DNA from: a virus
DNA: 64,000 bases
Virus record (IMG/VR): IMGVR_UViG_3300012973_000014
Coordinates: 22-64,021 of that record
Strand: one strand, 5' to 3'
Part shown: positions 4,315 to 60,558 of the stretch, piece after piece
Layout of the letters: every line of letters begins with the position of its first letter
Numbering within the stretch: position 1 is the first letter of the stretch
The notes under the pieces: model-generated
Told to the model about the DNA's origin: nothing
What the model saw: the letters and a program-made list of their open reading frames with translations, nothing else
Databases searched by the model: none
Position numbers and translations under genes: made by a program

Positions 4315-4380
4315 CTATCTTTGCATTGAAATTCATAACTATTTGTTTTTAGCATATTTGTATTTAAAGTTGGTTAATAA

Positions 4381-4417: not shown

Positions 4418-4493
4418 AGTCCAGTGGTGTAACGGTGAACACGCCGAGCAAGTCCCGGGGCCGGAGAAATGAGTTCGATTCTTGTCTGGACTA
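4418..4493 (+). tRNA. tRNA-like element (possible degenerate tRNA or tRNA-derived fragment)
   Basis: 76 nt. Perfect 7-bp acceptor AGTCCAG/CTGGACT, D-arm GTGT/ACAC with GG loop, canonical T-loop TTCGATT. The anticodon stem pairs poorly (3 of 5) and position 33 is A. Confidence 0.25.
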
Positions 4494-7986: not shown

Positions 7987-8288
7987 TTCTGCTCCTCCTT
8001 AAACTTTTTAACCAAAGCATCAGCGAGACTGAAAGAATAATAAGCAATATCTTTCACGGTCCATCTGTCAAGCGTCTCTTTACGAGCCAATAACCTTTGC
8101 ATAGCCGCCACCGCAGCCTCCCATTTACGAGATTCCCATCCTTTCTCCTGAACCTCTTCCCATGAAAAAGTATACGGAGTAACTTCAGGCTCTTCTTCTA
8201 TATTTCGGATAGTACCCAAACAAACCTTGCCATCATTGGTGCGAATCCCGACACGCATACCCGGTTCTATTTTTACTTTCTCTCCCAT
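7983..8288 (-). CDS. hypothetical protein
   Basis: 101-aa ORF, 4-nt overlap with its neighbour. Confidence 0.45.
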   Translation of the reverse strand: MGEKVKIEPGMRVGIRTNDGKVCLGTIRNIEEEPEVTPYTFSWEEVQEKGWESRKWEAAVAAMQRLLARKETLDRWTVKDIAYYSFSLADALVKKFKEEQK

Positions 8289-11688: not shown

Positions 11689-11789
11689 AATTTAAATGCA
11701 AGGAAGCTCTAATCTCATCTCCCTCGTCGCTGCAAAGGTAAAAATAAAACCTTAAATTTTCAAGTTTTTCGCAAAAAGTAGTACGAAAA

Positions 11790-12000
11790 CTACCTATCCA
11801 AACTACCTCACATCCCTTACAAACTGAACAATTTATGAGTCAAGGTAGTAAGGTAGTACAAATTTCGGGCAAAGGTTTGAAAAGTTACATGTGTGCATAT
11901 ACCCTATACACCTATGTACTACCTGTACTACCTTATTATATAAATTATTGATAATCTAAGAGTAGTGAGGTAGTTTTTATGGTAGTTTTGGGGTAGTTCA
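11790..12000. repeat. iteron array: GGTAGT(W)/ACTACC, 11 or more copies in both orientations
   Basis: aactacct, aggtagtaaggtagtac, gtactacctgtactacc, gaggtagtttttatggtagttttggggtagttcaggtagttc. Confidence 0.6.
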
Positions 12001-12300
12001 GGTAGTTCATTTTTTTAAAAAAAAATTTTTCAGGGTCCGATTTGGGGTTTCCGGGTGCTCCCGGCACCCCTCCCCTCCCTAATTTGCTGATATTCAGCTA
12101 CTTACATTTTGGCTGTGCAAGGTACCTATCAAATGTGAGGTTTATTTTGAGGTATTTTTGTTGTAACTTATTGATATACAGATAGTTACGGGTCGTCACC
12201 TAAAGTTTTACTTTAAATAAACCTATCTAACCCGCTGTGTTTTAATACTTTGTATGTAACCCTTTGAAAATCAAAACTTTACAAAATGATACTTTTTTGC

Positions 12301-13362: not shown

Positions 13363-14200
13363 GCTTTTTTGCTCCCCGTTATGGGGGGGCGCGTTAATGC
13401 AGGGCCCCATATGGGGCGCGGTTGCAACCCCGCGTAAAATGCAGAGCAACGCAACGTTCATTGATATAACAACCTTACAAGGTTACACGGGGGCGGGTAT
13501 CTTATACCCGTTGCACCGCGGGGGCGGGTATCTTATACCCTTAAGCCTTGCAATCTAGCAACCCGTTAAAATCTGCTGTAAGGACTGAAAACGCGCTAAA
13601 TTGCACCCGTTAATATAAGGTATTAACGCGGTTTAAATAGTCGGTTTAGCGGGGTATTTTGGCACTTTATACGCGTTGTGCAACGCGTTGCCAAATACCC
13701 GTTGCAGGTATCCAATGCCAAACTCCCAACGGGGGGGCGGTAGGGGAGAATTGCACCCGTTTTGAAACGTGCACGGGGCGCAAACGTACTAAACCCAAAC
13801 GGGGGCGGTATGGGTGAGCTATGTCCGTGTGTTTGAGGTTTTCCCGTTATCTTAGGTCTGCAATGACTGAACGGGTGAACGGATACCGAACTATTAAGGG
13901 AGGTAGGGGTACTTTGTGCCCGAACCGAACGAGGATAGTCCGACCTTGCCGAATCGAAGTAGGTGAGGCGCGAGGGTATCGTATAGGAGAGAGTGAGCGA
14001 ACGAAACACAGAGATATAGGGGAGAACTATATCCGGACCGTCTTGAACGGTTGCGATACGCACACTTGAGATAGTGTGAACGGGTTTAGTGTAGACTATA
14101 TCCTGTGTGTTTTTCATAATAATACAAAACAGCAAGGGCATACTGTGCCCGAGCGACAGGTGTACGAACGGCCTGTGGTTAGGAACTGTTCGTTTCGGGG
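13363..14200. other. GC-rich structured noncoding region with G-tract repeats and perfect palindromes (candidate ncRNA or regulatory region)
   Basis: No credible ORF. GGGGGCGGGTATCTTATACCC appears twice. GGGGGCGGTA appears three times. TTGCACCCGT appears three times (12737, 13597, 13751). Palindromes GCCCCATATGGGGC and ACGCGTTGTGCAACGCGT. Confidence 0.5.
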
Positions 14201-14488
14201 GTGGGGTACGAGAGTACTCTGCCCTTTCTAATTTATAAGAGTATGATAAACTTAAGAGAATTACGCAAGAGAGAGCCTGAGCGGTTCTTTATCTTGTGGC
14301 GGCAGCAGGACCCGATAGGATTCGGCTTAGCCAGAATACGTGCGAGTTACGAGGAAGTAACGAGTGCGAAGAAAAACGGAAGTGATGACTATGCCCGTAT
14401 GAGAGCGAATCATATTGCCCTTGTACGGAAGTGGACTGACCTGTGCGGTTTGGAGGCCAAGCAGGTACGAAAATATTATTATGTATAA
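14201..14488 (+). CDS. hypothetical protein
   Basis: 95-aa ORF, start uncertain. Confidence 0.3.
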   Translation: MGYESTLPFLIYKSMINLRELRKREPERFFILWRQQDPIGFGLARIRASYEEVTSAKKNGSDDYARMRANHIALVRKWTDLCGLEAKQVRKYYYV

Positions 14489-14544
14489 CCAGCCCGAATG
14501 CGGACGGGGGCGCACCTGAACGGGTGTATTGGGTCCGAACGATT

Positions 14545-14706
14545 ATGAGAAAAGAGATGCTACTTCTTGTAGCTGTGTTGTGGTCTGGCGAGGTATGCGA
14601 GGCTGCATTGTGTCCGAACGAGAATGTTGAGGATGCGAAGAACGCTGTTATTGTGAACTACTGCTTACCTTGTGGAGCAGTTAAAGAGTGGAGGATTGAA
14701 AAATGA
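14545..14706 (+). CDS. small secreted or membrane Cys-rich peptide (putative)
   Basis: In-frame Met of ORF 14443..14706. 'MRKEMLLLVAVLWSG' hydrophobic N-terminus, 4 Cys. Confidence 0.3.
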   Translation: MRKEMLLLVAVLWSGEVCEAALCPNENVEDAKNAVIVNYCLPCGAVKEWRIEK

Positions 14707-15612: not shown

Positions 15613-15673
15613 AACGAGGAGCCGAGGCAGGGATGTCTTGGCTCTTGCAATTATTAACCAAAACGATTGTATT

Positions 15674-15937
15674 ATGCTAAACAGAAATGTAATTGAGGGC
15701 GTGGAAGGACTACGCGAACTAATTATGAGAGAGATTAGAGAACATTTGGCGGACGAATGTGAGGGCGGGCCGGTGGATATTGATATAAAGTTTAATTTGG
15801 ACGGTAACGCAGAATATTTGCGTAGTATTCAATTGGACGAGGATGGTGAAAATGTATTGGTAGTAACCGATACGGGAGTAAACGAGTTGTTCTTATATTC
15901 TCTTGATGAGATGATTAAAATTGTGGATGCGCTGTAG
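15674..15937 (+). CDS. hypothetical acidic early protein
   Basis: Start at the Met after the cassette (TTAAC at 15654). Acidic composition. Confidence 0.45.
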   Translation: MLNRNVIEGVEGLRELIMREIREHLADECEGGPVDIDIKFNLDGNAEYLRSIQLDEDGENVLVVTDTGVNELFLYSLDEMIKIVDAL

Positions 15938-15999: not shown

Positions 16000-16275
16000 A
16001 TGAAAGAGATTGAATTAGGTTCCGATGGGGGAACTATTGCTCTTATGGAATGGATTAGGGCGAACAATTACCCAGCCTTAGATACAACATTTTGTCGGTC
16101 AGCAAGCGGATACTATACTCTTATAGTATCTTCTTACGAACCGACCGAATTTGATTTAGACCTTTCCGATGGGGAGTGGTTTGAATGGAAGGGTATGAAG
16201 AGGCACTTTTGTGGTCTTCCACGAATGTGGGTGATGTATATTGACGGGTATTGGTATTACGCAACGCCTTATTGA
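16000..16275 (+). CDS. hypothetical early protein
   Basis: 91 aa. Cassette TTAAC at 15980. Confidence 0.5.
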   Translation: MKEIELGSDGGTIALMEWIRANNYPALDTTFCRSASGYYTLIVSSYEPTEFDLDLSDGEWFEWKGMKRHFCGLPRMWVMYIDGYWYYATPY

Positions 16276-16281
16276 TGAATG

Positions 16282-16309
16282 ACCCTACTTGGTGCGAATC
16301 AGGTAGGGT
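16282..16309 (+). terminator. conserved hairpin ACCCTAC-N14-GTAGGGT (copy 2)
   Basis: Identical to 15944-15971. Confidence 0.5.
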
Positions 16310-16315
16310 TACGAA

Positions 16316-16382
16316 TTTTTAACCAGCGGCGAACGGCTGTGCTGCGCTCCTACGGGAGTTTAATGGGCCGTGTTGTATTATG
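16316..16382 (+). promoter_or_regulatory. class-2 conserved leader (TTTTTAACCAGC...GCGC...TAATGGGCCG...TATTATG)
   Basis: One of 4 copies (16316, 20066, 26780, 28131) of a roughly 65-nt element with three conserved blocks. Confidence 0.5.
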
Positions 16383-17129
16383 ATGGAATATGTTAGACCT
16401 ACAGAGATGATGAGACTTACTGTTATCAATGGTAATGTTTGCGAAGGAACTATCTGCGGAGTTATCTTGACTATCGTGGAGGGTGATATTGTAATGGACG
16501 GTTACCGATTTAAGCACAATGGCAAAGGGATTATCTTGCCGGCGGATCAGGAGTTCTATTTTGATGAGAATACATTCAAGTTAGGGCAACCTATCATTCC
16601 TGACTGCTCTTGGAACGGCCTGTACAGCCTTGTTGGTTGGGACCGTCCGACCTTGTGGTACTACAAGAATGGTAAGGCAGAGCCATGGAAGTGGAAGAAT
16701 GAGCTTATTTCTTGGGAGATATTGCCTAACTATAACGCTAAGTTGTTGAACGGCTTTATCCCGGATGAGTTATTCGGCGAAGAGAAGGATGTCTATAGTT
16801 GGCACGACCTTATCGTACATAAGGATAACGGGGATATTGAGTTTAAGAAGGCTCCGCTATCTGTATTGCGATTGAATGATAATCAGCAGAAGCTGTTTGA
16901 ACAATTTAAGGCGTTACTTAAAGAGATGACCGATGCTGACATGTTGATTGTTGAAGATAGGGACCGCTGCGAACTGGCGGTATTGAACTGCAGTGAATAC
17001 AGAGTAGAGTTCGAGTGCGGCAACGATTTCGAACCGGCATTTCCGACAGATATGCAGGTTGTTATCCGTAATCATACCTATTATTACGGGGATGGTAGTG
17101 AGCGAATGAACATTTACAAGAAGAAGTAG
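16380..17129 (+). CDS. hypothetical protein
   Basis: 249 aa. Behind the class-2 leader. Confidence 0.55.
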   Translation: MMEYVRPTEMMRLTVINGNVCEGTICGVILTIVEGDIVMDGYRFKHNGKGIILPADQEFYFDENTFKLGQPIIPDCSWNGLYSLVGWDRPTLWYYKNGKAEPWKWKNELISWEILPNYNAKLLNGFIPDELFGEEKDVYSWHDLIVHKDNGDIEFKKAPLSVLRLNDNQQKLFEQFKALLKEMTDADMLIVEDRDRCELAVLNCSEYRVEFECGNDFEPAFPTDMQVVIRNHTYYYGDGSERMNIYKKK

Positions 17130-17193
17130 GTAAACGAACGGGGGCTGGTGCAGAGATGTGCCGGCCCTTACTATTAACCAATAAAATGATATT

Positions 17194-18093
17194 ATGAATT
17201 ACGAAGAGATGTACGAACGAGTTAAAGCTGAACTACAGACTGAGTACGACCTGTGCTATGTAGATTACCGGGACTCTTTTAGTGTCAAGATGGTAGCTGA
17301 ATGTCTTGAGCGAAAGAGTCTTCAACCTTTATGGGAGGAAGACTGCTACTGGGAACATCGGTCTGATGCAAGTTTTGATATTTTGGACAAGATAGGTCTG
17401 AAATTATATAAGGATTACGAGTGGCTTGAGTTTAAACAAGAGTCGTATTTGTACAATGACCTGCGTTACTTGATTCAGGAACGTGATGTAAGCGAACCAG
17501 AGAAAGACTGCTGGATGCAAACGAGGGTGGATGGCAGGGTGTTACTATTCAGTAATTATGACTGCTGGGTTCCGCCGTATGATGCCGGTGGGTTGGATGC
17601 TTTTCATGACTACCTTGAGACCGCTATGAGAGTACTATGCTTGAATCCTAAGAAAGTTAAGGAGGTTTGCAGTGAGTGGACGACTTGCAGAGGTAGGTGG
17701 CCGAATTACCATTGGAGAGATGGTAAAGAGGTGGTGAGTTATGAGGGATTTAGCAAGATATTGCGAGAGTCTTGTTCTTACGGCTTACTATGCTTTGTCG
17801 GCAAGATGAATATGAGCGAGTTATGGGATAAGATTGATAAGCAGGATGAGTTAGTTATCCCTAAGGGAACCACTGTAACTATGTTCAACCATTGGAATGG
17901 TGGTGGCAGCATGGATGATTGTAAAACTCTCAGAGATGTATCTTTGGGAGAAATGAACCGCAGAGCGCAAAAATGTCTTGTGGGAACCGAGTATGACTTC
18001 GTTGAGCTTGAGGTAGATGAGAGAGGTTGCTGTAGAGGATATAGTACCGGTGAGGTGTATGGTGGTAGCTTAAGCGATGATGACTTGTTTTAG
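17194..18093 (+). CDS. hypothetical protein
   Basis: 299 aa. Cassette TTAAC at 17174. Confidence 0.55.
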   Translation: MNYEEMYERVKAELQTEYDLCYVDYRDSFSVKMVAECLERKSLQPLWEEDCYWEHRSDASFDILDKIGLKLYKDYEWLEFKQESYLYNDLRYLIQERDVSEPEKDCWMQTRVDGRVLLFSNYDCWVPPYDAGGLDAFHDYLETAMRVLCLNPKKVKEVCSEWTTCRGRWPNYHWRDGKEVVSYEGFSKILRESCSYGLLCFVGKMNMSELWDKIDKQDELVIPKGTTVTMFNHWNGGGSMDDCKTLRDVSLGEMNRRAQKCLVGTEYDFVELEVDERGCCRGYSTGEVYGGSLSDDDLF

Positions 18094-18156
18094 TAAAACG
18101 CGGCTGTAATAGGGATATTGCAGTCGTGGCGAGTTATTAACCAAAATTGATGTATT

Positions 18157-18417
18157 ATGAAAATCAGAGAAATCAAAGCAAAGGACGGTGCAAGAGAGTG
18201 CCGTATTTTCGTGAGCAGTTGTGTAAAGAACGAGATTGATGATGGCCGTATAGTGAAGGGCTATTGGTATATTGTCAAAGGCGGACAGGTCGGACGATTT
18301 GTGCGAGAATATATCAAAAGCGGTAAGCAGCTGGATAACCTTGAGGATTATGATGTGTTCAATATCAACGGGAGCTGTGATACCAAGGAGTATTTTGCGG
18401 AATTGCTTGCTATGTAA
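18157..18417 (+). CDS. hypothetical early protein
   Basis: 86 aa. Cassette at 18137. Confidence 0.5.
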   Translation: MKIREIKAKDGARECRIFVSSCVKNEIDDGRIVKGYWYIVKGGQVGRFVREYIKSGKQLDNLEDYDVFNINGSCDTKEYFAELLAM

Positions 18418-18424
18418 CGAACGG

Positions 18425-18450
18425 GACCCCGGCAGAGATGTACGGGGTTT
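18425..18450 (+). terminator. intrinsic terminator hairpin with conserved loop GCAGAGATGT
   Basis: gaCCCCGgcagagatgtaCGGGGtttt. Confidence 0.55.
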
Positions 18451-18477
18451 TGCAATGTTTAACTAAAAGAATGTATT

Positions 18478-18735
18478 ATGACACACGAAGACCAACAGAG
18501 GTTTATTGAGCTTGCTAAAAAAGCGAGGTATAATGAGGCTATGGATGAGCTGACCACTTTTGTATGTAATCATGTCGGAGAGGGTTTTAGCGGGCCGGAC
18601 GCCGAGCGAATGGCGGACGACTTCGCACTTCTTGCGGCTTGGATATATGACCGGCTGAACGGCGAGAATCCAAGGGCAAGGAGGAGTGTAACGAACAAGA
18701 TTAGGAAGGCGCTGGGGTACATACCTATGCAGTAG
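18478..18735 (+). CDS. hypothetical early protein
   Basis: 85 aa. Cassette at 18459. Confidence 0.5.
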   Translation: MTHEDQQRFIELAKKARYNEAMDELTTFVCNHVGEGFSGPDAERMADDFALLAAWIYDRLNGENPRARRSVTNKIRKALGYIPMQ

Positions 18736-18799
18736 TGAACAAGGAGGATGCGGGGAGGCCGGCATCCTCTTGCTATTAACCAACTAAATTTTATGTATT

Positions 18800-19120
18800 A
18801 TGGAAAAAGAATGGACAGAAGCAGGTATTAAGTATGTATTTGAAACTATCAAGAAGTGGATTAAGACAAGAACCTTCAAGACTCTAAAGAATGGAACCAT
18901 AGGTGGCTCTATGACGATTAAACAAATGGAGAATCTTCTTGGCTTGCCTTACTCGAGTTCCGGTAGACATGCGGGATTATGGATATGTAACGACGTTGTA
19001 TACTTGGACCTTGAGTGTAAGTATCATATCGCTGGGTTCTGTATGGATGTACGAGGATGCGTCTATGCTGAATGTTTTGATAAAGATGAAAACGAGTTGT
19101 TTATACCTATAAATAAGTAA
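18800..19120 (+). CDS. hypothetical early protein
   Basis: 106 aa. Cassette upstream. Confidence 0.5.
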   Translation: MEKEWTEAGIKYVFETIKKWIKTRTFKTLKNGTIGGSMTIKQMENLLGLPYSSSGRHAGLWICNDVVYLDLECKYHIAGFCMDVRGCVYAECFDKDENELFIPINK

Positions 19121-19123
19121 GTT

Positions 19124-19318
19124 ATGACTATCAAGGAATTACGAAAAATGTTCTGGACTGAAGTAGCCACAGATGAGATGCGTAAGGAGTATCGCAGTAG
19201 GAAAACGCAGAATGACTATTCTACCGATGTACGATGTGCTTGGGTGGATTTTACTGACCATGCAGTAAAGAGCGGGTGGATAACACAGAAGCAGTGTGAT
19301 GAACGAGCCACCTTGTAA
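19124..19318 (+). CDS. hypothetical early protein
   Basis: 64 aa, 3-nt spacing after the previous gene. Confidence 0.4.
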   Translation: MTIKELRKMFWTEVATDEMRKEYRSRKTQNDYSTDVRCAWVDFTDHAVKSGWITQKQCDERATL

Positions 19319-19382
19319 CTATGCAGCGACCTCGCAGGGATGTGGGGTTGTTGGCGAGTATTAACTAATTAAAATATGTATT

Positions 19383-19604
19383 ATGAGACGACAAGTAGAG
19401 AAAATCCCTTCTTGGGCTATAAATGCAATTATTAATAATGATTGTACAGGGTTGGAATATAGTGAGATAGATTTAATACAGAGATGGTTTGAGGATACGG
19501 GCTATGACTATGTTTGTACTCCGGATTCGGACCCGTATTTTACTAATTACCCTGCATTTGGACTACCTTGTGATGTTTATGACTGCATCTGTGTAACCTT
19601 GTAG
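19383..19604 (+). CDS. hypothetical early protein (Cys-rich C-terminus)
   Basis: 73 aa. Cassette at 19361. Confidence 0.45.
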   Translation: MRRQVEKIPSWAINAIINNDCTGLEYSEIDLIQRWFEDTGYDYVCTPDSDPYFTNYPAFGLPCDVYDCICVTL

Positions 19605-19661
19605 AGCTGACTCAGCCCGAGTGGTATTGGGTTGGGTTACGAGTATTAACCAATAAAAATT

Positions 19662-20036
19662 ATGAAAATGGAACTAACATTAAAAGAGATGGCTCAGATT
19701 GAGAGAGCTAGAGTAGAGGCAGCTAAGAAAGAAGAGGAGAGAATCCGTGAAGAACGACTTAGGCTAAAGACGGAGGTTGTAGATGTGTTATTCAATGAGA
19801 TTAAGGATTTTATCTCTACTGTGAGAAAAAGTGATAATCCTAACAATCCATACCTTTTTATACCTATAAAAGGTTATCCTCTTGATGGGCTATGGGGGTA
19901 TACAATATACCCCGAGACAACGCTTGACTATTTCATTGTACATTATAGAGATAGTAGTTGTTCTTACGCCTTCGACTATGAGAAACGCATGAATAAAAGA
20001 GAGTTTGCGGAGAAGGTGCTAAGCTTGTATTTGTAG
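19662..20036 (+). CDS. hypothetical early protein
   Basis: 124 aa. Cassette upstream. Confidence 0.5.
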   Translation: MKMELTLKEMAQIERARVEAAKKEEERIREERLRLKTEVVDVLFNEIKDFISTVRKSDNPNNPYLFIPIKGYPLDGLWGYTIYPETTLDYFIVHYRDSSCSYAFDYEKRMNKREFAEKVLSLYL

Positions 20037-20134
20037 AACCAATCGGGCGTCAAACAGGCGCTCACTATTTTTAACCAGCACCGGACAGGGAGCGTGCGCA
20101 TCTTGTGGAAGATGTTAGAGGCCTGTTGAGTATT

Positions 20135-20791
20135 ATGAAAAAAGAGAGCGAGAAGCTATTGAACGAGATTTATGTAATGACCGAGGACCAGAAGATTAAG
20201 GACAAGGTGTTGCAAATTTTAAGGATTGAAGCGCCTCAACCGAACGGTAAGTTTGATTACTTCAAGTATGTAAGCAAGGAACTTGCGAGACCGATTATGA
20301 CTGGTGTATTCCATGATAATGGTTTTAAGGTTGCGAGCGATTGCCATATTATTGTAGCTATTAAGGACTACTACGATATAAGCGAATTGGAAGGCAAGGT
20401 CGTAGGCAAGGACGGCGCATTCATTGAGGGTAATTATCCAAAATGGAGGACTGTTATTCCTGACTTTACCTCTAAGATGCATGATTACAGGACTGAAACG
20501 GTTAAGATTGATTTTGATAAATGGGCCGAGTTCATGAAGGCATATAAGGCTGATAAGAAACTAAATTTAGAAAAGCGTTGGGTTAAGATTGGAGAACAGT
20601 ATTATAGTGTGGATTTGTTCAACTTGCTTACTATCGCCATGAGGAGGATAGGGACGGATGAGATTACTAATTCTTGGAGTCAGTATGGTGGTACTGCCGG
20701 CGTATGCAACGGGAGCGACGGTAGTATTGCACTCTTGATGCCAGCGATGAGAGCGTATGACATAGATGATGACCAGTTTTACGTATTCTAG
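20135..20791 (+). CDS. hypothetical protein
   Basis: Start at the Met after the class-2 leader 'GTATTATG'. ORF track 20105..20791. Confidence 0.5.
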   Translation: MKKESEKLLNEIYVMTEDQKIKDKVLQILRIEAPQPNGKFDYFKYVSKELARPIMTGVFHDNGFKVASDCHIIVAIKDYYDISELEGKVVGKDGAFIEGNYPKWRTVIPDFTSKMHDYRTETVKIDFDKWAEFMKAYKADKKLNLEKRWVKIGEQYYSVDLFNLLTIAMRRIGTDEITNSWSQYGGTAGVCNGSDGSIALLMPAMRAYDIDDDQFYVF

Positions 20792-20857
20792 CAGTATGAG
20801 GGGGCGTTATCCGAGAGGGTGGCGTCTCTGCTATGATTAACTAAAAAAAGAAGTATT

Positions 20858-21382
20858 ATGAAAAAATTTGAAGACCTAACAAGTAGTGAGTTGTGGAAGT
20901 TAAGAGATGAGATTACATTAAACTCTATCTATGTAGCTGACTATGAGAACTCTTTCCGTTTTAATGCAAAATGTATCTGTGCCTTTTTCGATGGTTATGT
21001 AGATTACCTCTTTGAACTAGCTGAGGAGGATAAATTCCCAGTTGACGATGAGTTTGCTGTATTTGATAAATACGACACAGAAGATAATCTTTATAACTGG
21101 TTTTGCTGCTATGACGATTTGTCTTGGGTTGAGAGCGATATCAAGGTATTCCGCTTCTCCCAGACTTACAAAAAGACCGTTACATGGCGCGAGTATTACG
21201 ATATTGAGGCTGAATCATTGGAGGAGGCTTTAGAAAAGGTTGAGGAGTGTGATGGCGACTTGGATGACTGCGAAGATGCTGAGTTTGTTGAGGCCGAACA
21301 GGAGGAGGAGAATGATGTCGATGCATATCAGAGACGAGACATTGATACCATTTATGACCCGGACGGAGAGGAGGTGGAGTAG
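20858..21382 (+). CDS. highly acidic protein, candidate DNA-mimic/anti-restriction
   Basis: 174 aa. C-terminal 70 aa very D/E-rich ('EECDGDLDDCEDAEFVEAEQEEENDVD'). Confidence 0.5.
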   Translation: MKKFEDLTSSELWKLRDEITLNSIYVADYENSFRFNAKCICAFFDGYVDYLFELAEEDKFPVDDEFAVFDKYDTEDNLYNWFCCYDDLSWVESDIKVFRFSQTYKKTVTWREYYDIEAESLEEALEKVEECDGDLDDCEDAEFVEAEQEEENDVDAYQRRDIDTIYDPDGEEVE

Positions 21383-21446
21383 AGCAAAGCAGGACCGAGC
21401 AGTGATGTTTGGTTCTGTGCGATGTTTAACCAAAAAGATGTGTATT

Positions 21447-21704
21447 ATGATAAAAAGAACTGAAATTAAGAAAGCTGTATCTGACTTGGAAGAGATGCTC
21501 TATTTCTATGTAAAAGAACAACTTGAAAAGAACGGTGATATTGATATCTCCGTACAACTTGTTAGTAATGATTTTGATTGTTACGAAGCACAAAGACTCT
21601 TCTTGAGTGAAATCGGCGAACCTATGGTAGCCACTGATATGGAGCACCTTGAGTTTTGGGGTCTTAACCTTGAGGATATGCTGGTGATTTTTGAGAATAT
21701 ATGA
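21447..21704 (+). CDS. hypothetical acidic early protein
   Basis: Start at the Met after the cassette (TTAAC at about 21432). Inside ORF 21240..21704. Confidence 0.45.
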   Translation: MIKRTEIKKAVSDLEEMLYFYVKEQLEKNGDIDISVQLVSNDFDCYEAQRLFLSEIGEPMVATDMEHLEFWGLNLEDMLVIFENI

Positions 21705-21705
21705 T

Positions 21706-21734
21706 AATTAACCCTTACTTGAGCGATTGAGTAA
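21706..21734 (+). terminator. hairpin ACCCTTACT-N10-AGTAAGGGT, same family as 15944/16282
   Basis: Followed by TACGAATTATTAACC. Confidence 0.5.
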
Positions 21735-21769
21735 GGGTTACGAATTATTAACCAAAAAAACGAATTATT

Positions 21770-22126
21770 ATGAGTATTAAAGAAAAAATTGAACAGCAGT
21801 TTATTGCAGATTTTGATTTGGATATCTTCCTGAAATTTGTAGAGGACCAATTAAGGAAGCATGGCAATGCCGAGATAGGATTGGAATTTGATAGGTCGAA
21901 TAAGTCATTAAAATCAGCTCCTTTCCAAACAGAGGGGTATTTTACTTCTAAGAAGTGGCCTACTTTTGAAAGAGCGCGCAAAAATTATTACTGGAACTCT
22001 AATTGCCAAATACCGCATCAGTTAGTCCCGTATGTCAAAAAGCAGTTAACGGAGCAAGGACTTAAAACTTCGTGCAAAGGGGCGTGCGGTTACGATACCT
22101 ATGACATTCTTGTTGTGACTATGTAG
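21770..22126 (+). CDS. hypothetical early protein
   Basis: 118 aa. Cassette upstream. Confidence 0.5.
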   Translation: MSIKEKIEQQFIADFDLDIFLKFVEDQLRKHGNAEIGLEFDRSNKSLKSAPFQTEGYFTSKKWPTFERARKNYYWNSNCQIPHQLVPYVKKQLTEQGLKTSCKGACGYDTYDILVVTM

Positions 22127-22224
22127 CGAACTGGCAGGGATGATGCGAATTATCTCTGCTTACCAATTATTAACCAACCCGAACGCGTGAGGGTGCTCCG
22201 AGAGGAGTTATGGCGCGTATAATT

Positions 22225-22530
22225 ATGAAAAATAGTCAAGATTTGTACGCTATGTACAATGTTTTGGTTTCTGATGCCAAGGAGAGTATTAGGGACATCT
22301 TGAGTAAGCAACCTAAACAGAGGGTTATAGTGGATATGTGGGTTGTTGCGGATTATCACGAAGGAGCTGAAAGGGAAGCTGTTACCGGTATTCAACTAAG
22401 GGATGGTATGATAGAGCTTATCCTTCCCGACGGCGACATTGTGAGAAGCAAAAACGTATTGAACAGCGAATGGCTCTACATCTTAGAATGCGTTGAGTAT
22501 GAACTAGCTGAGAAGGAGGGAAAGTTATGA
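22225..22530 (+). CDS. hypothetical early protein
   Basis: Start after 'TATAATTATG'. ORF track 22210..22530. Confidence 0.45.
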   Translation: MKNSQDLYAMYNVLVSDAKESIRDILSKQPKQRVIVDMWVVADYHEGAEREAVTGIQLRDGMIELILPDGDIVRSKNVLNSEWLYILECVEYELAEKEGKL

Positions 22531-22853
22531 GCAAAGTAACATGTCTCTGCTATGGGCAGGAGCGGACTTTCAAGAGCAGGAAGGCTGCTATAGACTTTTA
22601 CGCTGAGGCGATGTTTGCAACAGAGGGAGCTGAATCGGAGAGGTATAGAACCATCTTGAGTAAACTGTACCGGGGCGATAAGGTGTGTAGTGATGAGGAA
22701 ATCAGTTGGGCTGGATTAGCTGCGGCTGGAGAGGAGTTTTACCAGCAAGTAGAGGAACGGGGAGTTAAGTTTCGTGATGATGAGCACGAGCAGGAAGCTC
22801 TGTTTGACTTTATCGAGCAGGTAAAGATGTACGGAAGAGCGGAGGTGAGGTAG
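22527..22853 (+). CDS. hypothetical early protein
   Basis: ATGA overlap with the upstream gene. 108 aa. Confidence 0.45.
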   Translation: MSKVTCLCYGQERTFKSRKAAIDFYAEAMFATEGAESERYRTILSKLYRGDKVCSDEEISWAGLAAAGEEFYQQVEERGVKFRDDEHEQEALFDFIEQVKMYGRAEVR

Positions 22854-22921
22854 CGTATGCGGAGTCGAGTAGAGATATTCGGCTCTGTACTATGTTTAAC
22901 CAATTAAAAAATGAATGTATT

Positions 22922-23251
22922 ATGAAGAAATGTGAATCATGGAGCGATGTAGAGCAAATTATAGCTCCTTTTGTCAAGAGTTATTTTAGCATGGACGACG
23001 AGGTTGTACCGACATTCAAGGATAGTCTTGCACGGGTAGGAAATTCCTTCACTGGATATGACAGGGTAGTCTCGTTTCAGACTAAAGAGGGTGTTATCGG
23101 CGAGGTTAGGAAACCGGTAACGAATGGCTATGGAGAGGCTTATAGAGATAGATGTAAAGATGGGTTTGTGCTGGGACTTCTTGGTAAGAACAATAAATGG
23201 ATATATGGCCCTGTAGAGCACATTAAGAGTACGATTGAGCTTGCTAAGTAG
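22922..23251 (+). CDS. hypothetical early protein
   Basis: Start at the Met after the cassette. ORF track 22892..23251. Confidence 0.45.
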   Translation: MKKCESWSDVEQIIAPFVKSYFSMDDEVVPTFKDSLARVGNSFTGYDRVVSFQTKEGVIGEVRKPVTNGYGEAYRDRCKDGFVLGLLGKNNKWIYGPVEHIKSTIELAK

Positions 23252-23314
23252 TATTACTCCCTTGAACTCTGACAGGTTCTTGGGGGACGAATAACCAATA
23301 AAAAATTAAGTATT

Positions 23315-23605
23315 ATGATAAAATATGTATGGGTAGATGACCGAATTACTGGTAAACATACCTATGAAGTTGATATTGAGGATTTGCAGGACCTTTTAGA
23401 TTCTCTTAATGCCGTCATATATTATAAAAAGGTTTTTTATGAGAGGCTGTCTGATGTTCCACTAGAGGTTGAGCGTGAGCAAATCTGTAGCTATGGGCTT
23501 CCTACTAATCTTTATATCACAATGGCTCCTACTATAACAATAGTACCAAAGGGTACTACTATAAGGAAATGGTACATTTTTGAGGAGTTTGTGTTTCCTA
23601 GATAA
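23315..23605 (+). CDS. hypothetical early protein
   Basis: 96 aa. Cassette variant ATAACCAAT. Confidence 0.45.
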   Translation: MIKYVWVDDRITGKHTYEVDIEDLQDLLDSLNAVIYYKKVFYERLSDVPLEVEREQICSYGLPTNLYITMAPTITIVPKGTTIRKWYIFEEFVFPR

Positions 23606-23714
23606 GATATAGCCCGCCTGAGCTTTATCAGGCTTGTTTGTTTGTTTGTTTTCATAGCCCCGTACCGCTGGGAAGTGTTGCGGGGTACAATTATTAACCA
23701 TTAAAAGAAGTATT

Positions 23715-24011
23715 ATGGAAAGACCTAAATTTAAAGAAGAGCGGATTATGTTTTATACTAAAGCTGAGTTGAATAGAGAACTCTTGTGGTGGGAATGTCG
23801 ACTCTCTAATCTTAAATCTGGGATAAAAGATTATCGAGACCAGAAAGACTGGGAAGTTAATCAGGCTATAATGATGGCTAAGCATGCCATACAAAACACA
23901 CGGGCTTTGTTAAACTTAAATTTAGATGAGTATTATTTGCAAGGTTCAAAGGTGGTAGCTATTACCACTATAGCAGAGAAGCGTGATGACTTAAAGTATT
24001 ACTTCACATGA
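23715..24011 (+). CDS. hypothetical early protein
   Basis: 98 aa. Cassette upstream. Confidence 0.5.
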   Translation: MERPKFKEERIMFYTKAELNRELLWWECRLSNLKSGIKDYRDQKDWEVNQAIMMAKHAIQNTRALLNLNLDEYYLQGSKVVAITTIAEKRDDLKYYFT

Positions 24012-24054
24012 AGTGGGGTAATGCACTGATTGTTAACTAATTAAAAAAAGTATT

Positions 24055-24333
24055 ATGAATAGAAAACCATGCGTGTTTATAAAGGAGACACAAGAAAACC
24101 CTACAGCTGCGGTGTTGGTTGTACGGTTTGATGATTTAGACAAGATAGGTCATACTAGATTTGAAATAGATGGTAAGTTACACATTCTTACCCATCCTAC
24201 TACTGCCGGTATAGAGTCTATCCTACTCAGGAATATCTTGGCTATTAAAGGATATTCTATTATAGATGAGAGAGATTTTGTGTGGGAAGATGGAGCCATA
24301 GATGTTGAATTTGTAACTGATATGCCTTATTGA
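24055..24333 (+). CDS. hypothetical early protein
   Basis: 92 aa. Cassette upstream. Confidence 0.5.
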   Translation: MNRKPCVFIKETQENPTAAVLVVRFDDLDKIGHTRFEIDGKLHILTHPTTAGIESILLRNILAIKGYSIIDERDFVWEDGAIDVEFVTDMPY

Positions 24334-24349
24334 TAAAGGAGGACGAGTA

Positions 24350-24700
24350 ATGGATAAACAATTTTTAGACTTAAAGACGCGGATAGAAAACATGTCCACT
24401 GAGAAGTTCGTGCAGTGGATGAACGAGGTGTTCTTGAATCGTAATGACCACGGGTATTACTGCAAAATTCACGAGGTAGATGATGATAAATATTGGTCGG
24501 ACTATATGCGACCTATAGGGGCTGAGATTGCCATTGGCATCGCGAATGGTGTCGAATGGGGCCGTTTTAATCGCGGAGAGAGATATGTTATGTATGTAGA
24601 ATATGATGATAATTTCATCACTTTTGACACCAAGGAGCAGTTCTTTAACGAGATTTGGCCCTTGGATGATATTATTTATGAAATGAATTGTAGGAGGTAA
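24350..24700 (+). CDS. hypothetical protein
   Basis: 116 aa. Shine-Dalgarno-like AAGGAGGA upstream instead of the cassette. Confidence 0.5.
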   Translation: MDKQFLDLKTRIENMSTEKFVQWMNEVFLNRNDHGYYCKIHEVDDDKYWSDYMRPIGAEIAIGIANGVEWGRFNRGERYVMYVEYDDNFITFDTKEQFFNEIWPLDDIIYEMNCRR

Positions 24701-24779
24701 TATGAACAGAGCCGGATGCATACAGTTTACCAAGGGGTATCAGGATGATATCTTCTTGGATATAGGTAGTTAGGTCCAG

Positions 24780-25190
24780 ATGAAATCATTTAAGCTGGGC
24801 CTTGCTTTTGATATCCTGAATAACTTGCCTCTGCAGGCATATAACTTTGATTACGGGTATCATACAGACTTGTCTCCTTGCGCCCTATTCTTCAATCCTA
24901 TGATGCTGTACCAAGCCATTCAAACAGTAATGACGAGTGTGCAGATACGTTCAGGTGTTGGGGAAGACGGCGTTCTGGTCCGTAACAAGAAGGAACTTAC
25001 CAAGGCGATAATTGCCGGACACAAGGTGATATACACCGTCAAGCCTAAGTGTAAATCTCTGGCAGAACAGGCTGAGTTTTATATGGAATTATGCGAGTAT
25101 ACGGCGGTGATTGAACGGTATATATACAAGGTGGCAAGGAAGAGGATGTTCAAGATGTTTAAAGTTATGATGAGTGGGTCGGAGCAGTGA
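24780..25190 (+). CDS. hypothetical protein
   Basis: 136-aa ORF. Confidence 0.45.
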   Translation: MKSFKLGLAFDILNNLPLQAYNFDYGYHTDLSPCALFFNPMMLYQAIQTVMTSVQIRSGVGEDGVLVRNKKELTKAIIAGHKVIYTVKPKCKSLAEQAEFYMELCEYTAVIERYIYKVARKRMFKMFKVMMSGSEQ

Positions 25191-25229
25191 TGTTCCTTCC
25201 CTTCCAATTTTTAACTAAAATGAAGTATT

Positions 25230-25424
25230 ATGGAAACGAAAGAATGCAAGCAATGCCGAATAACACGCCCTTTGAGCGACTTTTGTATAAGGTTTGGTGT
25301 TATATCCAACACATGTAAACATTGTGGAAAAGCGTTAAGGAGGGAACGAAAGGAGTTTATTAAATCTATTATGCCAGCTGTGCTAAAATTAAGGGAGGAC
25401 TTAAGAAATGCCATCAGGAGATAG
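25230..25424 (+). CDS. small zinc-ribbon protein (paralog of 27213..27527 N-terminus)
   Basis: 'METKECKQC...CKHC'. Cassette upstream. Confidence 0.45.
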   Translation: METKECKQCRITRPLSDFCIRFGVISNTCKHCGKALRRERKEFIKSIMPAVLKLREDLRNAIRR

Positions 25425-26475
25425 ACCTGCAAAGAAGGTTGTTTGCGCTATTTGTGGCGTAGAGTTTTGGACTACGGGTACTAATACAAGGTACTGCGAT
25501 AATATCGCTTGTCGTAATGAAGCATCCCGGATTTCTGCTAAGAGGTGTTCTGAGAAGAAAGACGCAGATAAGATGAAGTACAAAGATTTGTATGACAAGG
25601 TTATAAAGGACGGTATAGACTGGGATTTACCAGCGACTTTGGATAAAATTACTGAAGCGATTAAACTCGTAGACGATTTATCTAAAATGATTAATGGTAA
25701 GTATTTAAACATGTCTATTACAGAACTAAAAGAAGCTTTGGTCATCTATAAGACAAAAAGATGTAATAGCGGTACATTAGAAACGGGTATTCCTGAAGTA
25801 GATGATTATGTAAGAGATAATATAATGGGTTTTATCGACTCATTATTTGATTACCAACGCTATTCATTGAAAGATATGGTTGATTGTTGCAGCCGTTTAT
25901 ATTTAGACAATACCCCTAACTATACATTATCAGAGGAAGATGCTAATTCTGGTAAGCCTTATAAATACTATGAGATTGTATATTTGAGCGAATTAGGTAA
26001 ATACCGTTTTCGTCAACTCAACGCTGGCGGACTTATAGAGGACTATTCGGGTAAGTGTTGTAATAAAGAGTGCCCATATAATTTTGAACCTTCTTATAAA
26101 TATTCATGGGAAAGGGGTCGTGGATGTTCTCTCATCTGCAACCAAGATGGCTCCCGCAGGTCATCTATTACACAAGGACGTTGTTCTTTATTTATAAGGT
26201 GTGAGTATAGAAGGCTGGTGGATGATAAGCAGAGAGCTATGAAAGCCTGTAGATATCATATTGCGAGAAGGTATTTAAAATACACCGTAGATTTTGAAAT
26301 TGTGAGAGCTTTACGAGAGTTATTCTTTTTAGAAAAGCTTCCTAATAAGAATGTTTCATCTCGTATGGTAAAACTGATTAGAGAAAATTGTGAAACTTTT
26401 ATAAAGAAAGATTTTTATTCTAAAAATAAGAAACTCATTGATAGATATAATTACTTACACAAAAAAACATTCTGA
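25408..26475 (+). CDS. hypothetical protein with N-terminal zinc ribbon
   Basis: 355 aa. 'CAICGVEF...YCDNIACRNE'. AAGGGAGGA upstream. Confidence 0.5.
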   Translation: MPSGDRPAKKVVCAICGVEFWTTGTNTRYCDNIACRNEASRISAKRCSEKKDADKMKYKDLYDKVIKDGIDWDLPATLDKITEAIKLVDDLSKMINGKYLNMSITELKEALVIYKTKRCNSGTLETGIPEVDDYVRDNIMGFIDSLFDYQRYSLKDMVDCCSRLYLDNTPNYTLSEEDANSGKPYKYYEIVYLSELGKYRFRQLNAGGLIEDYSGKCCNKECPYNFEPSYKYSWERGRGCSLICNQDGSRRSSITQGRCSLFIRCEYRRLVDDKQRAMKACRYHIARRYLKYTVDFEIVRALRELFFLEKLPNKNVSSRMVKLIRENCETFIKKDFYSKNKKLIDRYNYLHKKTF

Positions 26476-26478
26476 ATT

Positions 26479-26739
26479 ATGAAACCAGTAAACGAAAAAT
26501 CACTATTACATCACTTGTTTGAGCAGATGGATAAATTAGACAAGGGTGAAATTACTACCGAGCGAGCTGTTGCTCATGCTAAATTAGCAAATGAAGCCAC
26601 GAAATTATTCAAGCAGGAAATGGACCGAGCAAGGTTGTTTATGGATTTGCAAGACCATGCAGCCAAGACTGGTCAAATGATTGGGCTTAGAGAGTTAGCG
26701 TCAAAAGGATTTGATGATACGACCAAGGTGATTGGGTAG
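26479..26739 (+). CDS. hypothetical protein
   Basis: 86-aa ORF. Confidence 0.45.
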   Translation: MKPVNEKSLLHHLFEQMDKLDKGEITTERAVAHAKLANEATKLFKQEMDRARLFMDLQDHAAKTGQMIGLRELASKGFDDTTKVIG

Positions 26740-26835
26740 AACAAAGAGACTGGGACCTAATCGTCCCTTTCTCTGCCATTTTTAACCAGCACGGAGCCGG
26801 TGTAGTGCGCCTAAATAGGTAATGGCCGGATGATT

Positions 26836-26979
26836 TATGAGACAACAATTTGTGCAGTGCAGGTATCGCTACCAAGCATTAAAGGAATGCCCTTGGAGTA
26901 GTAGGGTTGCAAAAGTGAACGGTGGCTATATGTGCTTTGAATCAATTAGTGATTATTATACATGGAGGAATCAGAAATG
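26836..26979 (+). CDS. hypothetical small protein (47 aa)
   Basis: Read by hand behind the class-2 leader at 26780. Below the ORF-track size cutoff. Confidence 0.3.
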
Positions 26980-27210
26980 AACAAACAAAGAAGAAAGCGT
27001 TTAGAAGATGTTGTGTCCCGCCTTGAGGAATGCATGTCCGACTTGGAGTTTATCAAGGAAGAGGAGCAGGAGGCTTATGATAACCTACCTGAGTCAATCC
27101 AGTACTCAGAAAGGGGCGAGTTAATGCAGGAGATTGCTGATGATATAGATTATGCCATTAGCGATTTGGACCAAGTAATCGATAGTGTTAATGAAATAAT
27201 AAATAAATAG
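26962..27210 (+). CDS. small acidic helical protein
   Basis: 82 aa, D/E-rich. Confidence 0.45.
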   Translation: MEESEMNKQRRKRLEDVVSRLEECMSDLEFIKEEEQEAYDNLPESIQYSERGELMQEIADDIDYAISDLDQVIDSVNEIINK

Positions 27211-27212
27211 TT

Positions 27213-27527
27213 ATGGAAACAAAAGTATGTTCAGTGTGCGGTCAAGAGTTACCTCTTGAGGATTTCGTGAAAAATAGTAGATGCAAGGATGGGTATGGGG
27301 CTCATTGCAAGAAGTGTCATAACAAGAAATACCCTTATCATTATAAGGATAAAGCGAATAAGAAGGTTGAAGTTAAGGATGCTCCGGTTGTCTCTGATTA
27401 TGTAAAGAGAGAACTTGAGCAGAATAATCTGCTCGTCATTCCTCCACGCTTACTTATAGCAGCGTTGAGGTATCACGGTTATCGTGGTGAACTGCAGAAA
27501 GTGACAGTAGAGACTGTCGTTATTTAG
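27213..27527 (+). CDS. zinc-ribbon protein (paralog of 25230..25424)
   Basis: 'METKVCSVCGQELPLEDF...CKKCHNKK'. Confidence 0.45.
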   Translation: METKVCSVCGQELPLEDFVKNSRCKDGYGAHCKKCHNKKYPYHYKDKANKKVEVKDAPVVSDYVKRELEQNNLLVIPPRLLIAALRYHGYRGELQKVTVETVVI

Positions 27528-27577
27528 CAAGGGCTGGTGCGACGGCTTACAAGTATTAACCTTAAAAGATAAATGAT

Positions 27578-28093
27578 ATGGAATTATTGGAAACTATTGC
27601 TTACGAGCATGGATTGGATTTGATTGAAACGACTTCGGATGGAACCGGTTATCCTCGTGATTTGAAGTATGCTGTTATCGGTTTTGAAACCTTTGACGAG
27701 GCTCAGGAGTTGGCGGACAGGTATGGATTGACTGTTCGGGAGTTTACCAGACGTGATGGTTGGCAGCTTTGGGTGAGAGGTGGAAAGATGTTCGGGGAGT
27801 ATGATTATGAGAAAGTAATGGGCGAGGGGTATCCAAACGAAGTTATTAGAACGTATCGTCATACTGATGCTGAAGATGTTATATCCGATTTGAGAGAGCA
27901 CCTGCAGTATGCCAGCTTGCGTGATATGAAAATCCTGATTGAGAACGCTGAGGAGGTCTTAGAGAAGTTAGATGGCTGTCAACCGGATGAGTTTATTGTA
28001 ACATGCGCCGGAGAGTATGACGGCACTTATCATTGCAAAACCATGTCCTTCGCCTACGACTCTTCCCGATACGCAATCGGAATTGCGGAGTAA
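27578..28093 (+). CDS. hypothetical protein
   Basis: 171 aa. Cassette at 27559. Confidence 0.5.
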   Translation: MELLETIAYEHGLDLIETTSDGTGYPRDLKYAVIGFETFDEAQELADRYGLTVREFTRRDGWQLWVRGGKMFGEYDYEKVMGEGYPNEVIRTYRHTDAEDVISDLREHLQYASLRDMKILIENAEEVLEKLDGCQPDEFIVTCAGEYDGTYHCKTMSFAYDSSRYAIGIAE

Positions 28094-28187
28094 AAATAGG
28101 GCCGAGATGGCGAAAGCTGTCTCAGCCCACTTTTGTTAACCAGTGCCAAGCGGGGTGCGCACGCCCTTTTAGGGTTAATGGCCCGTA

Positions 28188-28637
28188 TTGCCTATGCAAG
28201 TATTCATTCCTTATGCAAGTCCGTTTGATACGGCAATGGCATTAAAAGGAGATAGACGCTTCTTAAAACAGATTCAAGAAACAAGACAGATTCTCTCTGC
28301 TATCTACGACCCGACAAGAGGATACGCTAATCATCCTGTGACTAAGATGTACAAGAATCATACTCAATGGCTTTATCTGTATCTCATGGTGTTTGAGTTT
28401 GTCAGAGACAACAATCTGATATCAGCCCGGTTCACTTCATTCTGCGCTGACAGATGCAGACCCGAGTGGATGACTGATGAGCTATGTGACCAGCATAAGA
28501 GACGCCTGTATACCAAGAATCCGCAGCGTTACCCACATTGGGCTCATCTTGGTACATCGCTGGAAAATTGGTATGTAGTGAACGGGGAGGTAAAAAAGTA
28601 CATTAATGGCAAAATAATTTTGCAAAATAAAAACTAA
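28188..28637 (+). CDS. hypothetical protein
   Basis: 149 aa. Behind the class-2 leader. Confidence 0.5.
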   Translation: MPMQVFIPYASPFDTAMALKGDRRFLKQIQETRQILSAIYDPTRGYANHPVTKMYKNHTQWLYLYLMVFEFVRDNNLISARFTSFCADRCRPEWMTDELCDQHKRRLYTKNPQRYPHWAHLGTSLENWYVVNGEVKKYINGKIILQNKN

Positions 28638-28736
28638 CCTATTAACTTTGTAAGAAAATTTGAGATATGACACTATTGTTTATTATATGGGGAATCGCGT
28701 ATTTCTGCGAGGAACTGATAAATGGAGGTAAATAGT

Positions 28737-42857: not shown

Positions 42858-42858
42858 A

Positions 42859-60545: not shown

Positions 60546-60558
60546 ATCTTATTCCTCC

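Follow-up and report, generated by a model that had tools for sequence, protein, structure and literature searches.

A recurrent, covarying leader pseudoknot in the small-gene array of a tailed phage

Translation initiation and post-transcriptional control are poorly understood in the Bacteroidota and their abundant gut phages, whose hosts largely do without Shine-Dalgarno pairing; the Bacteroidales clade rarely uses Shine-Dalgarno sequences. In Escherichia coli, the pseudoknot of the rpsO (S15) mRNA sits on the 30S platform and lets a protein trap the initiation complex (reviewed in PMC10931766). The preQ1 riboswitches are translation regulators, of which preQ1-I is an H-type pseudoknot and preQ1-II (RF01054) an HLout pseudoknot with helices P1-P4 (PMC11625349). 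In phage T4, the pseudoknot in the gene 32 leader is an autogenous translational operator, and RegA is one repressor of many early mRNAs (PMC3014915, PMC535899, PMC10690425). The PeSL cassettes of T4-like phages are hairpin-plus-signal motifs placed between small early genes, where they serve as joints in modular shuffling (PMC2839356, PMC4122927). For IMG/VR, a catalogue also lists more than 8,000 structured RNA candidates (PMC10690425). Here we describe a long 5' leader that recurs in an early-gene array of an uncultured, tailed gut phage of Bacteroidales type, in a stretch of 64,000 nucleotides (nt) comprising positions 22 to 64,021 of IMG/VR record IMGVR_UViG_3300012973_000014 (the window). 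This element is a real, conserved leader pseudoknot outside the families of Rfam 15, and it is unusual in being multi-copy and modular and in its Shine-Dalgarno-poor host setting.

Fold of the long leader

Comparative evidence gives good support to reading the long leader as an H-type RNA pseudoknot of about 50 nt, with a hairpin (P3) embedded in its third loop. We compared 41 distinct copies, about 19 sequence types, from the window and nine related metagenomic phage contigs, and all fit one topology. Helix S1 has 4-6 base pairs (bp); its 5' strand is formed by the four bases directly after a box, TTAAC(C/T)A, with zero gap in all 41 copies, and its 3' strand (GTGC) precedes an invariant GC. 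Helix S2 has 5-6 bp; its 5' strand begins with R-C and sits in the 12-13-nt S1 loop, and its 3' strand follows a TAATGG block. P3 (4-8 bp) lies between the 3' strands of S1 and S2 and opens with a G.U pair in 38 of the 41 copies, followed by a C-G pair in 39.

Loop L1 has 2-4 nt across the 5-6-bp S2, L2 has 2-3 nt, and the linker after P3 (consensus UAAUG) has 4-6 nt across the 4-6-bp S1. The linker grows with S1 length, a correlation that is not phylogenetically independent. These lengths appear sterically compatible with S1 and S2 forming together, and that of the linker would suit the S1 groove. The distance from the last S2 pair to the AUG is 5-10 nt in every copy, mostly 6-8 nt. About 12 positions are near-invariant, among them the unpaired or junction bases A14, C17-G65, G29.U54, UAAUG and G61, and these conserved bases look like a recognition surface. 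A further helix of 3 bp between the CCA of the box and the UGG of UAAUGG is 85% paired and was picked up by RNAalifold; we leave it as a possibility because the invariant box precludes covariation. The S2 3' strand is variable (GCCGU, CCUGU, CGCGU and others) and holds no conserved purine-rich Shine-Dalgarno sequence.

A first-pass annotation of the window had described the leader as three blocks. The blocks are real but not separate, being parts of one fold: the first is the box, the second (GTGCGC) is the S1 3' strand with the first two bases of P3, and the third (TAATGG) is the linker with the start of the S2 3' strand. The hairpin that it cited as an example, GGGTGCGCACGCCC at 28155, can form in that copy only and differs from the conserved fold. 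The AUG within TAATGG was considered as a conserved upstream open reading frame (ORF) and rejected, since frame and length vary and about 40% of copies have GAG, UAG or AUA instead.

Base pairs were counted in a segment-wise, N-padded alignment that was fitted to the structure by hand and in which many rows are orthologues, so that the counts are not independent events. In this alignment, 95.2% of 624 cells are paired, compared with 36-53% in controls with partners displaced by 1-3 columns and 68.7% in shuffled ones, and 146 cells carry double changes (40 +/- 4 in shuffles). S1 is 99.4% paired with all four of its pairs covarying, S2 is 90-93% paired with covariation in five of six, and six of the eight P3 pairs covary. 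Because the counting alignment was hand-fitted, we also ran RNAalifold on plain MAFFT alignments, which yielded S1 and P3 and, once the S1 5' strand had been cut off, S2 and P3 with compensatory changes. A plain MAFFT alignment of all paralogous leaders put the 3' half out of register and hence was not used for counting. The first-pass annotation had named covariation in related phages as a check on its 'structured leader'. That reading holds: the pair counts find covariation in all three helices, and the structure is a covarying three-helix pseudoknot on the sense strand.

The same compensation is visible between individual leaders. The orthologues at window position 20071 and at 9946 of the related contig L026 read GCAC/GTGC and CCCC/GGGG in S1, ACAGG/CCTGT and ACGAGC/GCTCGT in S2, and CATCTT/AAGATG and CAC/GTG in P3. 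Leaders of this type (copy 3 below) in L026 and L029 differ in sequence in all three helices, and in orthologues of copy 2 P3 is altered to GCTCTT/GAGAGT and GCCC/GGGT. The conserved G.U pairs, present at the base of P3 in 38 of 41 copies, fit an RNA of the sense strand, since the opposite strand would have C.A mismatches.

When the anchor is fixed directly behind the box, only 0.56% of dinucleotide shuffles score as well on this topology as the real sequences do. A structure-only descriptor scan of the whole window was unspecific (524 matches on the + strand) and is informative only with the anchor fixed. A box-free covariance model built from seven sequences gave 47 matches, 43 of which are pseudoknot leaders, all on the + strand; none fell in the two outgroups, L028 and the nearest isolate, Parabacteroides phage PF672P1, both of which lack box and pseudoknot. 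Permissive scans against Rfam 15 (14-30 kilobases (kb), 20020-20145 and 16270-16390) returned no match to the leaders at E <= 10 beyond chance-level fragments of small nucleolar RNAs and microRNAs, and a gathering-score scan of the whole window returned a tRNA only. The unmatched families include preQ1-I/II/III, SAM-II/V, fluoride, guanidine-III, pistol, twister and HDV-like RNAs.

Copies, scaffold and modularity

The four copies of the first-pass annotation (16316-16382, 20066-20137, 26780-26838 and 28131-28190) are all real and carry the blocks ascribed to them, but the total is six; those at 14485-14547 and 22170-22227 had been missed. These six are full-length in an nhmmer search of the window with a whole-element profile, all on the + strand (E = 1.5e-7 to 2.5e-10), with none on the - strand, and they are spaced every 1.4-4.6 kb. 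A 12-mer search with the first block alone is weakly above chance (6 matches against 2.0 expected, a number reached by 2 of 100 shuffles).

Copy 1 (14485-14547, E = 1.5e-7) has a degenerate box, ATAACCA, at 14485-14491, with S1 at 14492-14495/14508-14511, S2 at 14500-14505/14533-14538 and P3 at 14512-14527; its AUG at 14545 opens an ORF of 53 amino acids (aa). In copy 2 (16319-16382, E = 2.5e-10, 73 bits with the box-free covariance model) the box at 16319-16325 is followed by S1 (16326-16329/16342-16345), S2 (16333-16338/16366-16371) and P3 (16346-16359, GCTCC-TACG-GGAGT), and the AUG at 16380 begins a 249-aa ORF. Copy 3 spans 20071-20137, with its box at 20071-20077, S1 at 20078-20081/20094-20097, S2 at 20085-20090/20121-20126, P3 at 20098-20115 and the AUG of a 218-aa ORF at 20135. 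Copy 4 (22170-22227, beginning TTAACCAAC; nhmmer E = 4.7e-10) comprises a box at 22170-22176, S1 at 22177-22180/22191-22194, S2 at 22183-22188/22213-22218, P3 at 22195-22208 (GCTCC-GAGA-GGAGT) and an AUG at 22225; it was recovered by the covariance model (E = 2.6e-5) although it lay outside the seed. For copy 5 (26782-26839) the corresponding positions are 26782-26788 for the box, 26789-26792/26805-26808 for S1, 26796-26801/26825-26830 for S2, 26809-26820 for P3 and 26837 for the AUG, which opens a 47-aa ORF. Copy 6 (28136-28196, covariance model E = 2.3e-9) has its box at 28136-28142, S1 at 28143-28146/28159-28162, S2 at 28150-28155/28181-28186 and P3 at 28163-28175, and its AUG at 28194 starts a pyrimidine-dimer glycosylase (PF03013). 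Two gene sizes first given for these leaders, 228 and 149 aa, stem from upstream GTG or TTG codons inside the leader; the conserved starts are the ATGs at 20135, which gives the 218 aa of the homologues, and at 28194.

All six copies belong to a + strand array of small genes at about 14.2-28.2 kb, with a strong skew of G over C. Nearly every gap in the array has the same order of stop codon, hairpin, box, A-rich spacer and start context. A hairpin of 12-14 bp lies upstream of 24 of 24 boxes within 14.4-28.2 kb (mean z = -3.9 against shuffles), at a distance of 0-9 nt from the box at 23 sites and of 18 nt at box 14485. On the + strand, the hairpins of the pseudoknot leaders are at 14439-14466 (copy 1, weak), 16280-16311 (copy 2, a 14-bp terminator-like example of the hairpin preceding nearly every box), 20045-20063 (copy 3), 22133-22160 (copy 4), 26745-26774 (copy 5) and 28099-28128 (copy 6). 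Many array hairpins have the inner sequence GCAGNGATGT or GGTGCGAAT in common. The start context of the array is (G)TATTATG, or GTATTATG, as at 15627-15680, 18432-18482 and 21399-21450. This context is confined to the array; those of late genes vary, some with AGGAGG. AGGAGG-like Shine-Dalgarno sequences stand upstream of the capsid gene and some other late genes (60546-60570, 42858-42875, 7987-8005, - strand), and upstream of none of the array genes. The GTATTATG context resembles the consensus AAAAUUGUUAUGUAA obtained for T4 RegA by SELEX (systematic evolution of ligands by exponential enrichment; consensus quoted in PMC3014915).

The box had been taken as specific to the long leaders, but it is present in every one of the roughly 24 spacers between array genes, those of all short, 'class 1' leaders among them. 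Since it is common to all leaders, a long leader amounts to a short one whose spacer has been swapped for a G+C-rich insert. The claim that the two classes are distinct accordingly survives in part: the upstream hairpin, the TTAACCA box and (G)TATTATG are common to both, and what differs is the A-rich spacer of about 8-14 nt between box and start context, which the pseudoknot replaces. The pseudoknot is a plug-in module of about 45 G+C-rich nt, placed between the box and (G)UAUUAUG.

The box and its flanks fit neither TTGACA-N17-TATAAT nor the Bacteroidetes TTTG/TAnnTTTG consensus. None of the array spacers contains a canonical Bacteroidetes promoter (TAnnTTTG, alone or with a TTTG upstream), whereas such promoters do occur in other intergenic regions of the phage. 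One of them (TTTG, 20 nt, TAACTTTG) lies at 28615-28650, directly after the last pseudoknot-led gene and upstream of a resolvase gene; the array's special mode of expression ends at this point.

Related contigs show the same hairpin and box arrangement and supply many additional long leaders, as many as ten within 20 kb. The genes downstream fall into about 21 unrelated families, mostly without Pfam or PHROG matches, with one pyrimidine-dimer glycosylase. Some families are always pseudoknot-led (218 aa, 12/12; 249 aa, 8/8; 101 aa, 6/6; glycosylase, 3/3), whereas others switch between pseudoknot and short leader from phage to phage (4 versus 6 for the 174-aa family, 2 versus 3 for the 299-aa family and 7 versus 1 for the 52-53-aa family). 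Leaders of the 26782 type precede ORFs of 47, 77 or 70 aa, with different genes in the contigs L020 and L023. L020 carries a fusion of the left flank of box 25211 with the right flank of box 26782 and lacks the intervening 1.57 kb. This indel (window 25211-26781 versus L020 10140-10290) has a TTAAC(C/T)A box as its exact boundary on either side and holds a 355-aa HNH-like gene and two small ORFs. The position of the junction between boxes identifies the box region as a recombination joint. The window and L020 show a second joint at the start codon that follows the pseudoknot.

The phage encodes a major head protein, tape measure, P4-type primase, C5 methylase, helicase, resolvase and the pyrimidine-dimer glycosylase. 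Its closest isolates are the Parabacteroides phages PF672P1 and PF672P2, with 53% identity in the capsid and 34% in the primase. Given that the nearest isolates infect Parabacteroides, the host is very probably a member of the Bacteroidales. Nearer relatives are metagenomic contigs exclusively; we collected them (L020-L032) through homologues of the 218-aa protein, at 49-89% protein identity. A megablast search with 13 kb of the window found no close relatives among GenBank phages, an IMG/VR search with the 249-aa protein found no relatives, a scan of IMG/VR with a short-leader DNA pattern gave isolated chance-level matches and no related phage, and a scan of genome contigs gave no prophage or host match to the 218-aa protein. 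A 2534-aa virion protein was considered as a crAss-type virion RNA polymerase and ruled out, as the DFDxD motif is absent.

Several features of the window lie outside the array. A tRNA is found at 4418-4493 on the + strand (Rfam, 42 bits, above the gathering score; ARAGORN did not report it), with a Bacteroidetes-type TATCTTTG promoter box at 4316, about 100 nt upstream. Between the first + strand ORF and the array lie about 880 nt of G+C-rich non-coding DNA (13363-14240), in which CGGGGGCGGGTATCTTATACCC, an exact 22-nt repeat, occurs at 13488 and again at 13519 and TTGCACCCGT motifs recur; this region could serve as an origin, as a cluster of regulatory sites or as a non-coding RNA. The divergent intergenic region at 11770-12010 contains dense GGTAGT(A/T) repeats and a 51-nt imperfect inverted repeat, and its repeats look like a set of iterons.

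Proposed translational control and alternative roles

Given that the 3' edge of the pseudoknot abuts the ribosome-binding window and that the pseudoknot replaces an unstructured A-rich tract, we propose, as the most probable of the readings considered (about 45%), that it controls translation initiation. It could dampen initiation intrinsically or, more likely, would serve as a common operator for one RNA-binding protein of phage or host origin. A single post-transcriptional signal would then act on about six unrelated early genes per genome, a logic that would combine the T4 gene 32 pseudoknot with the RegA regulon (PMC3014915). That one leader type occurs on different genes speaks for a common factor or an intrinsic role rather than for autogenous control.

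Several points weigh against translational control by this fold. Because the AUG with its 6-8-nt context falls outside the fold, which sequesters no Shine-Dalgarno sequence either, occlusion is no more than a possibility. The tight spacing to the AUG could instead be a by-product of cassette design, the pseudoknot having been inserted between two fixed elements. No candidate binding protein for the postulated trans-acting factor was identified, and the pair counts carry the dependence on hand-fitting and orthologous rows described above. Finally, nested minimum free energy folding of single sequences is unremarkable (z = -0.97, -0.53, -2.4 for copy 4, +0.55 and +0.77), although this is expected of a pseudoknot and hence neutral evidence.

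The position of S1 also constrains transcription. S1 has to be part of the RNA, so the transcript starts no later than the last base of the box; this rules out a classical -10 role for the box, in which the start would lie several bases further on. Two arrangements fit: transcription may enter the array from upstream, with the hairpin-box units acting on RNA, or it may initiate at the very end of the box. An unlikely alternative is a 5'-end stabilizer: if transcripts start or are processed at the box, a pseudoknot 0-3 nt from the 5' end could slow 5'-end-dependent decay, such that these mRNAs outlive those with short leaders. S1 directly abuts the box in all 41 copies, its covariation requires an RNA that starts no later than the end of the box, and the array spacers lack canonical host TAnnTTTG promoters. 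Endonucleases enter at single-stranded AU-rich stretches between structures, and the succession of hairpin, UUUUUAACCA and pseudoknot resembles such an entry site. However, a simple hairpin would suffice for protection, and the conserved junction bases and linker exceed what protection needs.

It is also unlikely that the leader, rather than being a passive structure, represents a new functional RNA class, whether a multi-copy riboswitch or ribozyme, or a Shine-Dalgarno-independent ribosome-docking or positioning element of Bacteroidales phages in which the fold would bring the TTAACCA box at its side to a working distance from the AUG. If true, the phage could switch a whole early-gene set with one signal. 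In the more specific form of a new riboswitch for a small molecule or ion, coupling early genes to a host metabolite or signal through many copies, the idea is quite improbable. A compact pseudoknot of about 50 nt is typical of preQ1, SAM-II, fluoride and guanidine-III aptamers (in part PMC11625349), the leaders lie directly upstream of start codons, and about 12 near-invariant core positions cluster at the helix junctions. Set against this, the genes downstream have no relation to one another, mostly lack a known function and can be exchanged for versions with a short leader; neither single-sequence folding nor RNAalifold revealed a conserved alternative pairing that might act as an expression platform; and no Rfam family was matched.

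Less probable again is an element of the HK022 put type, in which the nascent pseudoknot would modify RNA polymerase to read through the terminator-like hairpins of the array. Terminator-like sites do exceed expectation (26 observed versus 10.3 +/- 3.8), a 12-14-bp hairpin follows every array gene, some with T-rich tails, and the pseudoknots are spread through the array at 1.4-4.6 kb and are not gene-specific. Yet most of these hairpins lack a proper U-run, the tightly kept position next to the AUG is not needed by an antiterminator, and put RNAs consist of two stem-loops rather than a pseudoknot.

We regard as very improbable a self-cleaving ribozyme, or a mimic of a host RNase substrate, that would cut the polycistronic early transcript at the box into monocistronic mRNAs. 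The strand order recalls P1/P2/P4 of ribozymes like that of hepatitis delta virus (HDV), which cleave at their own 5' edge; the element starts exactly at a conserved boundary; and a G.U wobble and invariant junction bases are conserved. However, no Rfam ribozyme family was matched even at E <= 10, the 12-13-nt S1 loop is too small for the HDV P3/L3 core, and about 18 short leaders have the box without any such structure.

A DNA-level promoter or operator, a classical attenuator and a functionless relic of a small mobile insert, the first and second of which echo the 'alternative promoter' and 'attenuator' of the first-pass annotation, might explain a repeated element in intergenic DNA whose box region is a recombination joint, but they are largely excluded by the covariation and by the lack of a hairpin plus U-run in any of the six leaders, where P3 (4-7 bp) is followed by UAAUG: a terminator model leaves the covariation of S1 and S2 unexplained, conservation resides in base pairing across three helices, where G.U pairs occur on a single strand, rather than in fixed hexamers, sigma-70-like matches are fewer than in shuffles (27 versus 44), and about 19 diverged sequence types still keep the fold, unlike a relic.

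With respect to translational control, pseudoknot-led and short-led orthologues constitute a natural on/off comparison in which the role of leader structure is directly testable. A compact, covarying leader RNA present six to ten times per genome is, in addition, a candidate family for catalogues of RNA motifs.

Comparison with known leader RNAs and cassettes

The nested double pseudoknot of HDV-like ribozymes, with P1, P1.1, P2, P3/L3, P4 and a catalytic C, is not found in these leaders, and only a P1/P2/P4-like order is present. The leaders resemble preQ1 riboswitches in that both are small pseudoknots in 5' leaders in which a hairpin loop pairs with a downstream tail, an extra hairpin lies between, and the 3' strand adjoins the start codon. 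Unlike preQ1 riboswitches, the leaders match no Rfam model, occur in six or more copies per phage genome and precede unrelated genes. In contrast to preQ1-II, the strand of the pseudoknot helix carries no Shine-Dalgarno sequence and the downstream genes have no link to queuosine or preQ1. The leader is therefore not a preQ1 member, given the absence of a sequestered Shine-Dalgarno sequence, a queuosine-gene link and a model match.

As in the rpsO mRNA, the pseudoknot is immediately upstream of or around the start site. The rpsO case differs in being a single cellular operon under autogenous control, with both Shine-Dalgarno sequence and AUG inside the structure. The T4 systems offer two partial parallels, namely a leader pseudoknot on a phage early gene (gp32) and a single factor acting on many early messages (RegA). 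The gp32 operator is, however, single-copy, serves one gene and is bound by that gene's own product, whereas the leaders described here are swapped among unrelated genes and are not tied to a gene of their own in the manner of an autogenous operator. RegA sites, for their part, are unstructured AU-rich sequences around the AUG.

For the scaffold of hairpin and box, though not for the pseudoknot, the closest match is the PeSL cassette. PeSLs carry a sigma-70 early promoter and no leader pseudoknot, and the TTAACCA box fits no such promoter. What the two have in common is the role of indel joint, found here at the boxes that bound the 1.57-kb indel, and the scaffold thus shows PeSL-like modular shuffling outside the T4-like phages.

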